Positions 39,531 through 40,725 of a stretch of DNA of 64,000 nucleotides are shown here, piece by piece. The notes under the pieces were generated by a model, which ran no database searches, had not been told where the DNA came from, and saw nothing but the letters and a program-made list of their open reading frames with translations. This stretch comes from Cladosporium halotolerans (taxonomy: Eukaryota): assembly GCF_011745625.1 (NCBI RefSeq), contig NW_027191473.1:248001-312000 (forward strand). The letters run 5' to 3'. A program made the position numbers and the translations under genes. Each line of letters begins with the position of its first letter. The stretch's first letter is position 1.

Positions 39531-40725
39531 GTGAGGTGAGGTTAAGGAAGGTGCGACTGAGCGGTTGTCAGGTGAACGCACGTGCCCCCTGGCTCAACCG
39601 CATTCACGCGAAGGTGAGGTGAGGTTAGAATTGGCAAGATTCAAGAACATAACCTCTCATTGGGCCACTGGGCGCTTTTAACAAGATTAGCGCTGGTATT
39701 AGCTCATGGCGTGATTTTCTTCGCGAGTGAATAATGCGTTCCACATCGGGAAGGGTGAAGTGAGGTTAGAATTTTCGAGACAAGGGATGGGATCTCTCAG
39801 TGGGCCGCCGGGCGTTTACAACAAGGGCATCGATAGTAACAGCACATTGCGCGATTTTCTTTGCGAGACCATGCTGCCGCTCTCCATTGTTAATTGTGAA
39901 GTGAGGTTAGAATTCCTGGGGTTTCGGACACGAGCGCTCGTTGGGGCACGACACTTTTGTGGAAATGCCATTGCTGGCAACAGCACATAGCCAACTTTTT
40001 CGCCAGAGATAAGAGCGATCTTGCTTACTCGCATGTGATTCTTCGTCCCTGGGAAGACAGACGACGGTGAAGTGAAGTCAGATTTTCTGGGTCTCGATTG
40101 GGCCCGCTTAATCGGACCCGACACCTTTATAACAATGGCAGCGCTGGTATTAGCAGAGTGCGATTCTATCCCCGAAATCAGAGAGCGATTTAACAGACTC
40201 ACATTTGAAGTTCTGCCCATACATCGGCATATGAGAGTTGAGGTGAGGTCGGTAATTTTGAGAATCGCAAACCGACCACTCGGTGAGGCACGGTACTCCC
40301 GTAACCATGGCGCTGGGGGTATAAGCACTCGGCGGATTTTCATATACGGAAACGAAGAGCGACCTCTTTGGAGCCACATGTGACAGCCCGTGCAAAGGGC
40401 TGGCGTTGAGGGAATGCATGCTGCACCAAACCCAGATGAAGTGAAGTTAGAGTTTCGGGAGTTGCCGATTCCCACGTTAATCGGAATACAGCATGCGGAT
40501 AGGAATGATCTTGATGGTATTAGCAGGTAGCACGATTTTGTTCGTGTAGACAAGCGGTGATTTCTGGCTTACATGTGAATCCTCTCGCTGGGCATGCGCT
40601 ACAGTTGTCAGAGCGTCACATAGCGTGCAGCTGAAGTGAGGTCCGCTTTCCGAGCAGTGCAAGGGCCTTGCTTCTCGTGAGATCAGAAAATATCAATGGC
40701 GACGTTCCTAATGGTATTATCGAGC
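39531..40725. repeat. Diverged tandem array of seven 141-198 bp units with conserved boxes
   Basis: Box A (TGAR)GTGARGTY at 39619, 39760, 39901, 40072, 40243, 40441, 40636 (extra copy 39536); box B consensus GGTATTAGCA at unit position 75-78 in each. Confidence 0.88.

Follow-up and report, generated by a model that had tools for sequence, protein, structure and literature searches.

An old tandem duplication upstream of a taxonomically restricted reading frame in Cladosporium halotolerans, with one short motif kept beyond uniform decay

In the 64-kb window (the whole stretch of Cladosporium halotolerans DNA that was analysed), the gap between two minus-strand genes was found to be occupied by an array of diverged head-to-tail units that, as read from sequence, can securely be called an old, lineage-specific tandem duplication or minisatellite forming the upstream region of an orphan gene. 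A junction motif of 11 to 15 nt, TGARGTGARGT(YRG) (box A), is clearly the sole part of the array kept beyond uniform decay. We tentatively regard the array as a minisatellite in a promoter with box A as a candidate protein-docking site, a statement which, taken whole, is given a little under an even chance of being correct; a functionless relic of tandem duplication is nearly as likely. No account of such an array in Cladosporium was found in the literature searches made.

The array extends over the gap from the stop of an ING3-like gene (40996) to a TATAAAG element, and the features on either side of it are as follows.

38160 to 39368, minus strand: 402-codon ORF downstream of the array, taxonomically restricted
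39499 to 39505, minus strand: TATAAAG; the first box A is 24 bp away and the ATG at 39368 about 130 bp downstream
40996 to 43149, minus strand: ING3/Yng2-like PHD-finger gene, whose stop codon is some 270 bp past the distal array end

The TATAAAG element is likely the core promoter of the 402-codon ORF. The product predicted from this ORF has an N-terminal hydrophobic stretch, a coiled coil and a Cys/His-rich tail, and was found to have only weak coiled-coil matches in Pfam. GC content at codon positions 1, 2 and 3 of the ORF is 0.63, 0.51 and 0.83, respectively. A search of a 5.8-billion library returned a single match, which was a 96% identical copy, and an exhaustive search of 1.84 billion returned two, the second being a 46-aa fragment; no other homologue was detected by either search. 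The copy in the relative is intact, with a length of 402 aa of which 387 are identical and 15 changed, and is carried on a 5111-nt contig on which the ING3-like neighbour is 99% identical. At the DNA level, 11 of the 15 base differences listed for the ORF (among 40 of 144 rows) alter an amino acid. By its codon bias the ORF looks like a real gene, but one that is young and weakly constrained. The ING3-like protein had 701 homologues at E ≤ 0.001, and its gene is kept across Cladosporium and related orders, with identities of 84% for Cladosporium fusiforme, 83% for Cladosporium sp. NU13, 74-83% for JGI-sourced homologues and 58-66% for many Mycosphaerellales. Directly after the stop of the 402-codon ORF lies a second, young tandem repeat of 129-131 bp (91-98% matches, with a run of N inside), which indicates that the locus is prone to tandem duplication.

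The array itself spans 39529-40724 and is composed of six full head-to-tail units (141, 141, 171, 171, 198 and 195 bp) and a remnant at each end. The units are given below without strand, together with the 11-nt core of each box A and the position of box B, a second and less well-kept word.

39529 to 39611: u0, promoter-proximal remnant, 83 bp; box A core 39532-39542
39612 to 39752: unit 1, 141 bp; box A core 39615-39625; box B 39695-39703
39753 to 39893: unit 2, 141 bp; box A core 39756-39766; box B variant AGTAACAGC 39835-39843
39894 to 40064: unit 3, 171 bp; box A core 39897-39907; box B variant GGCAACAGC 39976-39984; CATGTGA 40032-40038
40065 to 40235: unit 4, 171 bp; box A core 40068-40078; box B 40146-40154; CATTTGA 40202-40208
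40236 to 40433: unit 5, 198 bp; box A core 40239-40249; box B variant GGTATAAGC 40318-40326; CATGTGA 40377-40383
40434 to 40628: unit 6, 195 bp; box A core 40437-40447; box B 40516-40524; CATGTGA 40572-40578
40629 to 40724: u7, distal remnant; box A core 40632-40642; box-B-like word GGTATTATC 40713-40721

Start to start, the box A cores are spaced 83, 141, 141, 171, 171, 198 and 195 bp. The first-pass annotation had described seven copies with the last six of these spacings, and both the copies and the spacings were reproduced by repeat finders and by a search with the core word. An eighth, promoter-proximal box A that had gone unnoticed was found at 39532, with the spacing of 83. The box A of this remnant (u0) shares 16 nt with that of unit 1, and a CACGTG word occurs in u0 at 39579-39584. 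The suggestion that units decay away from the gene did not survive, since u0, the copy nearest to the gene, is a remnant too and decay is thus not simply directed away from the gene. At the other end, u7 is unrecognisable beyond box A and the box-B-like word, and a profile search matched it at model positions 2-26 only (E 0.84); this remnant is probably located within or close to the 3' untranslated region of the ING3-like gene. Tandem Repeats Finder did not report the array, because its units are too diverged. Two regularities of length are left unexplained by the promoter-minisatellite reading. Every full-unit length (6 of 6) is divisible by 3, and units 1 and 2, like units 3 and 4, are of equal length by way of compensating indels. 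Such indels had been proposed previously and were confirmed: the distance from box A to CTCTCA is one base longer in unit 1 than in unit 2, and the tail of unit 1 is one base shorter.

The sequence between the boxes was examined by a leave-one-out approach, in which five units, stripped of their first 25 nt (box A), were made into a profile and searched against the 64-kb window, otherwise masked. The sixth unit was recovered in all six trials (E 8.7e-13 to 1.2e-4). The intervening sequence is indeed heavily diverged, as initially described, but it is still recognisably homologous along the whole unit, and the interiors, judged from this similarity, are diverged homologues and not unrelated spacers. 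By profile search, no further copies of the unit were found elsewhere in the window. The six full units have a mean pairwise identity of 0.559 across 118 core columns that are nearly free of gaps, and the pairs are approximately equidistant, units 1 and 2 resembling each other most (76% over 74 ungapped nt). Differences between units comprise 395 transitions and 372 transversions (ratio 1.06), and the dinucleotide indices of the array are near those of the window (TpA/ApT 0.58 vs 0.60; (CpA+TpG)/(ApC+GpT) 1.35 vs 1.26). Repeat-induced point mutation (RIP) would leave too many C-to-T transitions at CpA, with the first of these indices raised and the second lowered. A RIP-mutated duplication was rejected on these grounds, as near-equal transitions and transversions together with window-like RIP indices point to ordinary, old substitution. 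When the variable interiors were compared to the rest of the window, blastn returned only chance matches of 13-16 nt (E 3.3) and tblastx returned nothing below E 0.18. An origin of the units as copies of the proximal promoter was likewise rejected, the best nhmmer match being to 39473-39501 at E 9.9.

Box A stands out from this background both in number and in conservation. Allowing at most one mismatch, GTGARGTGARGTYRG was found seven times in the 64-kb window, all on the plus strand and within 39531-40450, compared to 0.08 matches expected by chance and to shuffled sequences of which 0 of 100 reached seven. The exact 11-nt TGARGTGARGT occurs nine times in the window (0.18 expected); eight of these are the plus-strand array cores given above and the ninth is a solo core at 62301, some 140 nt ahead of an ATG. 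No box A was found within any gene of the window. In the alignment of the six units, the best 15-column window is box A, with 10 invariant columns compared to a simulated mean of 5.1 (P = 0.0005; 20,000 runs on a star tree with a single rate for all sites). Of the unit, box A alone has survived in both end remnants. The word is close to a repeated pentamer (GTGAR twice), and a metagenome scan for box A pairs (two words 129-159 nt apart) yielded at least 102 loci with GTGAR simple repeats. None of these listed loci (at least 102) matched 38151-43300 by blastn, and they represent unrelated DNA that is mostly AT-richer. Since GTGAR words are common as simple repeats, box A may have persisted for a mutational and not a selective cause.

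Box B (GGTATTAGC and its variants) starts at 39695, 39835, 39976, 40146, 40318, 40516 and 40713, which is 78-81 nt past the start of the 11-nt core in units 1-7; the offset claimed for it earlier (75-78 by that annotation's own counting) was borne out. At no more than one mismatch, GGTATTAGC has 11 matches in the window, 5 of which are in the array. The GATTTT-like block and the CAT(G/T)TGA words of units 3-6 (at 40032, 40202, 40377 and 40572) are also present as described. When the first 20 columns of the alignment were removed, box B was the best remaining window, with P values of 0.039-0.083 by column shuffling and 0.036-0.065 by simulation, such that its conservation beyond uniform decay is marginal. 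Across the whole core alignment, 25 columns are invariant compared to 18.1 ± 3.9 in simulation (P = 0.054), and blocks other than box A and box B are indistinguishable from uniform decay. The proposed selection on boxes and spacing was therefore retained in part. It stands for box A, is marginal for box B and is not seen in the remaining blocks; uniform divergence along the units, which had been put forward as the opposing outcome, suffices for the remaining blocks but not for box A. For the spacing, selection is needless: the distance between box A and box B changes by a net 0-2 nt over about 60 nt, a change that a few small indels would give. The tails of the units differ in length by 24-57 nt.

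Variation among close relatives was compared using contigs from four public runs (X1, X2, X3 and X18), which covered genes and spacer alike. One segment of the array was found to be absent from a contig of X3.

39897 to 40263: 367-bp stretch missing from one X3 contig, comprising units 3-4 and the box A of unit 5 (no strand)

The X3 contig joins 39896 to 40264 cleanly and the other three runs have the full array; the absence is a length polymorphism of the array. By this deletion the X3 variant drops two box A copies and is left with a box-less junction, which indicates that not every copy is needed. Differences within the array numbered 25 in 1038 nt (X1) and 31 in 1577 nt (X18), those in and around the ORF 11 in 618 and 15 in 924, and a 213-nt contig over unit 1 had 13. 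From these counts per nucleotide, the array is not better conserved than its flanks among close relatives. In P0002, a close relative's ORF call that covers units 2-5, six amino-acid differences were mapped by hand to seven base changes, three of which are in minor blocks (box B of unit 5, and CATTTGA and AACAATG of unit 4) and none of which is in box A.

The unit size of 141-198 nt and the layout of boxes with variable interiors resemble clusters of small-RNA genes, and a T4-T5 run (the GATTTTC block) lies about 100 nt past box A in five of the six full units. A processed ncRNA array had been among the initial proposals; such an array might be a snoRNA cluster or a set of Pol III small-RNA genes with one small RNA per unit. 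RNA-gene analysis did not support this proposal. At the Rfam gathering score, the one match in the window was to nuclear RNase P RNA at 9940-10330, outside the array, and relaxation to E values of up to 10 across 38500-41500 returned sub-threshold noise only, including an sR30 snoRNA row (E 9.4) at 38666-38711, again outside the array. The RNAalifold consensus had four pairs, at -0.01 kcal/mol on the plus strand and -0.21 kcal/mol on the minus strand. Fold-energy z-scores of eight segments on both strands ranged from -2.8 to +2.3, with 0.03 and 0.23 for the whole array, and fixed sub-segments had mean z-scores of -0.31 to +0.14, unit 4 alone standing out (z -3.8). A 5-bp stem around GATTTTC has one double change, in unit 6, which is too little to count. 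ARAGORN detected no tRNA-like genes in 38000-42000. Box C/D snoRNAs carry RUGAUGA and CUGA boxes and a terminal stem, and H/ACA snoRNAs have a hairpin-hinge-hairpin structure ending in ACA; on reading the sequence, neither a RUGAUGA/CUGA pair nor an ACA-ended double hairpin was found to be conserved across units. Type-2 Pol III genes have A and B boxes 30-60 nt apart, a T-run terminator and a tRNA-like fold, and the array boxes, 78-81 nt apart, do not fit the Pol III A/B consensus. Taken together, these results render an array of small processed RNAs very improbable.

An origin of the array as a decayed protein-coding repeat is just as hard to sustain, and was rejected. The divisibility of all six unit lengths by 3 is in its favour, as are a stop-free frame of 250 codons on the minus strand (39816-40568), with frame 0 open through units 3-5, and the finding that the same ORF is intact from its ATG in the relative (P0002, 181 of 187 identical). 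Codon usage in this frame is flat, however, with GC of 0.43, 0.55 and 0.51 at codon positions 1, 2 and 3 by contrast to the 402-codon ORF, and divergence between units has no 3-periodicity (0.47, 0.44 and 0.41 by column mod 3). Units 1, 6 and 7 contain stops in every frame on both strands, the two longest ORFs of the array matched no Pfam family, the sole database relative was a 97% identical ORF call from a public assembly, and no conserved peptide motif was found beyond the translated boxes. A coding past for the array is thus considered highly unlikely.

A further possibility is that the plus strand gives rise to a non-coding transcript of repeated intron-like modules, in which box A is donor-like and box B acceptor-like. 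GTGAR|GTGAGG would be a tandem 5'-splice-site-like word, an AAC-containing block the branch site and the YAG at the end of box B the acceptor; the modules would be either spliced mini-introns separated by variable exons or reiterated docking sites for the U1 snRNP on a chromatin-associated RNA. Counted from the GTGAGG/GTGAAG word, the AG of box B (within YAG or AAG) is reached after 84, 83, 83, 82, 83 and 83 nt in units 1-6, and 82-84 nt is a normal length for a fungal intron. In each of the six full units the AG that closes box B has a C after it, donor, branch region and acceptor fall on the three best-kept blocks within the first 85 nt, and the array has base skews of reversed sign relative to both adjacent minus-strand genes. 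Individual signals speak against it: donor position +6 is G throughout where T is usual, several AGs compete between the putative branch site and box B, and the branch-site words of units 3 and 6 are poor. When the 'exons' were joined, stops were present in every frame and the longest open stretch was 40-109 codons. Conservation of box A moreover reaches well past what a donor needs, box A is absent from the genes of the window, and neither side of the array has a plus-strand gene. We consider this series of intron-like modules quite improbable.

The array may instead be the functionless relic of a tandem duplication that arose in a fast-changing, lineage-specific region and is simply decaying; box A would then be where similarity has lasted longest, whether by chance, through short-tract conversion between units or through slippage that regenerates GTGAR-GTGAR. 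Much of the evidence is in keeping with such a relic, which is given a substantial probability, if clearly one below even. Conservation outside of box A is at most marginally uneven (box B P 0.04-0.08; 25 vs 18.1 ± 3.9 invariant columns), the array changes at least as fast as its flanks in close relatives, and a public assembly carries the 367-bp deletion that takes two box A copies. The young 129-131-bp tandem repeat beside the same ORF, and the nearly neutral evolution of the ORF itself (11 of 15 listed differences nonsynonymous, among 40 of 144 rows), are also as expected of a region in simple decay. By contrast, 10 invariant columns in 15 beside approximately 44% divergence are unlikely under uniform decay (P = 0.0005), no part but box A survives in both end remnants, and 16-19 identical bases are, from general knowledge, short for homology-driven conversion. 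Since box A alone resists decay and persists in both remnants, the preferred reading is that it may serve as a reiterated docking site for a DNA-binding protein in this promoter. In the reading of the array as a promoter minisatellite, the repeat accounts for practically all of the sequence upstream of a fast-evolving orphan gene; its units have diverged to about 56% pairwise identity through ordinary substitutions and small indels, and its length still varies between close relatives. Box A would be a candidate DNA site at which a sequence-specific protein docks repeatedly, with the copy 24 bp from the TATA box serving as the proximal site and the remainder of each unit drifting as spacer. A phased protein-binding array, which had also been envisaged at the outset, would be compatible with the position of the units directly upstream of the TATA box. 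A stronger version appears improbable. In it the eight box A copies, at intervals of nucleosome scale, would be functional docking words, used either on the DNA or as U1 sites on a plus-strand RNA; the young orphan gene would have gained all of its regulatory sequence by tandem duplication of a single module, and a promoter or regulatory ncRNA would have been born with a de novo gene.

If box A is functional, the locus would provide an example of a new gene that gains its promoter by repeated duplication of one short module, and of an array that decays around the part that matters. As it stands, the array is an ordinary intergenic minisatellite, though an unusually old and well-ordered one. 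It also provides a caution, in that the regular appearance of boxes and spacers can arise from uniform decay of a tandem duplication in which one block is truly constrained.

Several known systems resemble this arrangement in part. Tandem repeats in yeast promoters have reportedly been linked to expression divergence in a classic study. The array is similar to such promoter minisatellites in being a lineage-specific, head-to-tail upstream repeat whose copy number varies between close relatives, but its units are long (141-198 bp) and old (about 56% identity) instead of short and homogeneous, and one short motif is kept. The promoter/enhancer repeats of the rRNA spacers of Xenopus and Drosophila are units of 60-240 bp upstream of a promoter, with a conserved protein-binding core and drifting remainder. 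Both these repeats and the array place a series of units, each with a short conserved core, directly upstream of a promoter. The rRNA spacer repeats, however, duplicate the gene promoter and act on Pol I, whereas the units described here are unlike the proximal promoter and the gene is a Pol II orphan ORF. The A-repeat of Xist is a lncRNA repeat module composed of a conserved core and a variable linker, and thus likewise has a short conserved core at regular intervals with variable sequence between. Compared to the A-repeat, the array units are three to four times longer and have no conserved core hairpin, and they are known here from DNA alone.

Among fungi, tandem duplications in the promoter of cyp51A carry sites for SrbA (SREBP) and are recent, short (tens of bp) and identical. 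They are akin to the array in that a tandem duplication multiplies a site, there of bHLH type, in a fungal promoter. On its other strand box A reads TCACYTCAC, a direct TCAC repeat that resembles the SRE. The published SrbA/SRE motif is (A/G)TCA(T/C/G)(C/G)CCAC(T/C), with a strongly kept C at position 7 (PMC4223079). Against this form of the motif, the other strand of box A, CTCAC(C/T)TCACC, agrees at 8-9 of 11 positions, with mismatches at positions 1 and 7 in every copy. Because of this partial fit and the missing C7, box A was rejected as an SrbA/SREBP site and the SrbA/SRE name is unsupported. In contrast to the recent, short and identical cyp51A duplications, the array is old, long and diverged, and box A is not an SrbA member by that motif. 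Introner-like elements are repeated elements with donor, branch and acceptor signals in Dothideomycetes, the same fungal class (PMC4457414), and the array has putative donor-, branch- and acceptor-like words in its repeats. Introner-like elements are single introns in unrelated genes with many near-identical copies (PMC4457414). Unlike them, the array has no copy in the genes of the window and is instead one intergenic tandem array of diverged units.

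The decayed head-to-tail array lies upstream of an orphan open reading frame (ORF), and the features considered together with it were as follows.
9940-10330, + strand: gene for nuclear RNase P RNA (Rfam family RF00009; score 60.4 bits, E 7.8e-15)
37533-38143: young tandem repeat, units of 129-131 bp with 91-98% matches
38160-39368, - strand: orphan ORF of 402 codons, with strong GC3 bias (0.83)
39376-39411: run of GGT/GAT trinucleotides in the leader, directly upstream of the orphan ORF ATG
62301-62311, + strand: solo box A core (the unit-start motif), the only core in the window beyond the array

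By protein library searches, a 96% identical copy was the sole homologue of the orphan ORF found. Among the differences listed between this ORF and its relatives, 11 of 15 altered an amino acid. Judged from sequence, the ORF looks like a young orphan gene under weak constraint. Directly past its stop codon begins the young tandem repeat, which is broken by a run of N (~37780-37880) and spanned by an open + strand frame (37499-38200). Around the leader, records seem to be cut (39367-39417).

The solo core was found in another intergenic gap, ~140 nt upstream of the ATG of a + strand gene (62441), with the minor block CATGTGA 90 nt downstream (62392-62398). A single chance match of this kind is not unlikely (0.18 expected in the window). 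Paired GTGARGTGARGT words spaced 129-159 nt apart were common in unrelated metagenome contigs (at least 102 loci); among the matches listed, these pairs belonged to repeats rich in GTGAR pentamers (up to 33 words per contig), the surrounding DNA was mostly AT-richer, and none was kin of the array locus.

Public contigs of close relatives were found to break and differ most at 39562-39774, over unit 1. One sequencing run (X1) provided 213 nt over this unit with 13 differences, and another (X18) provided two alternative short contigs. These breaks and differences suggest that the end of the array nearest the promoter varies between strains.
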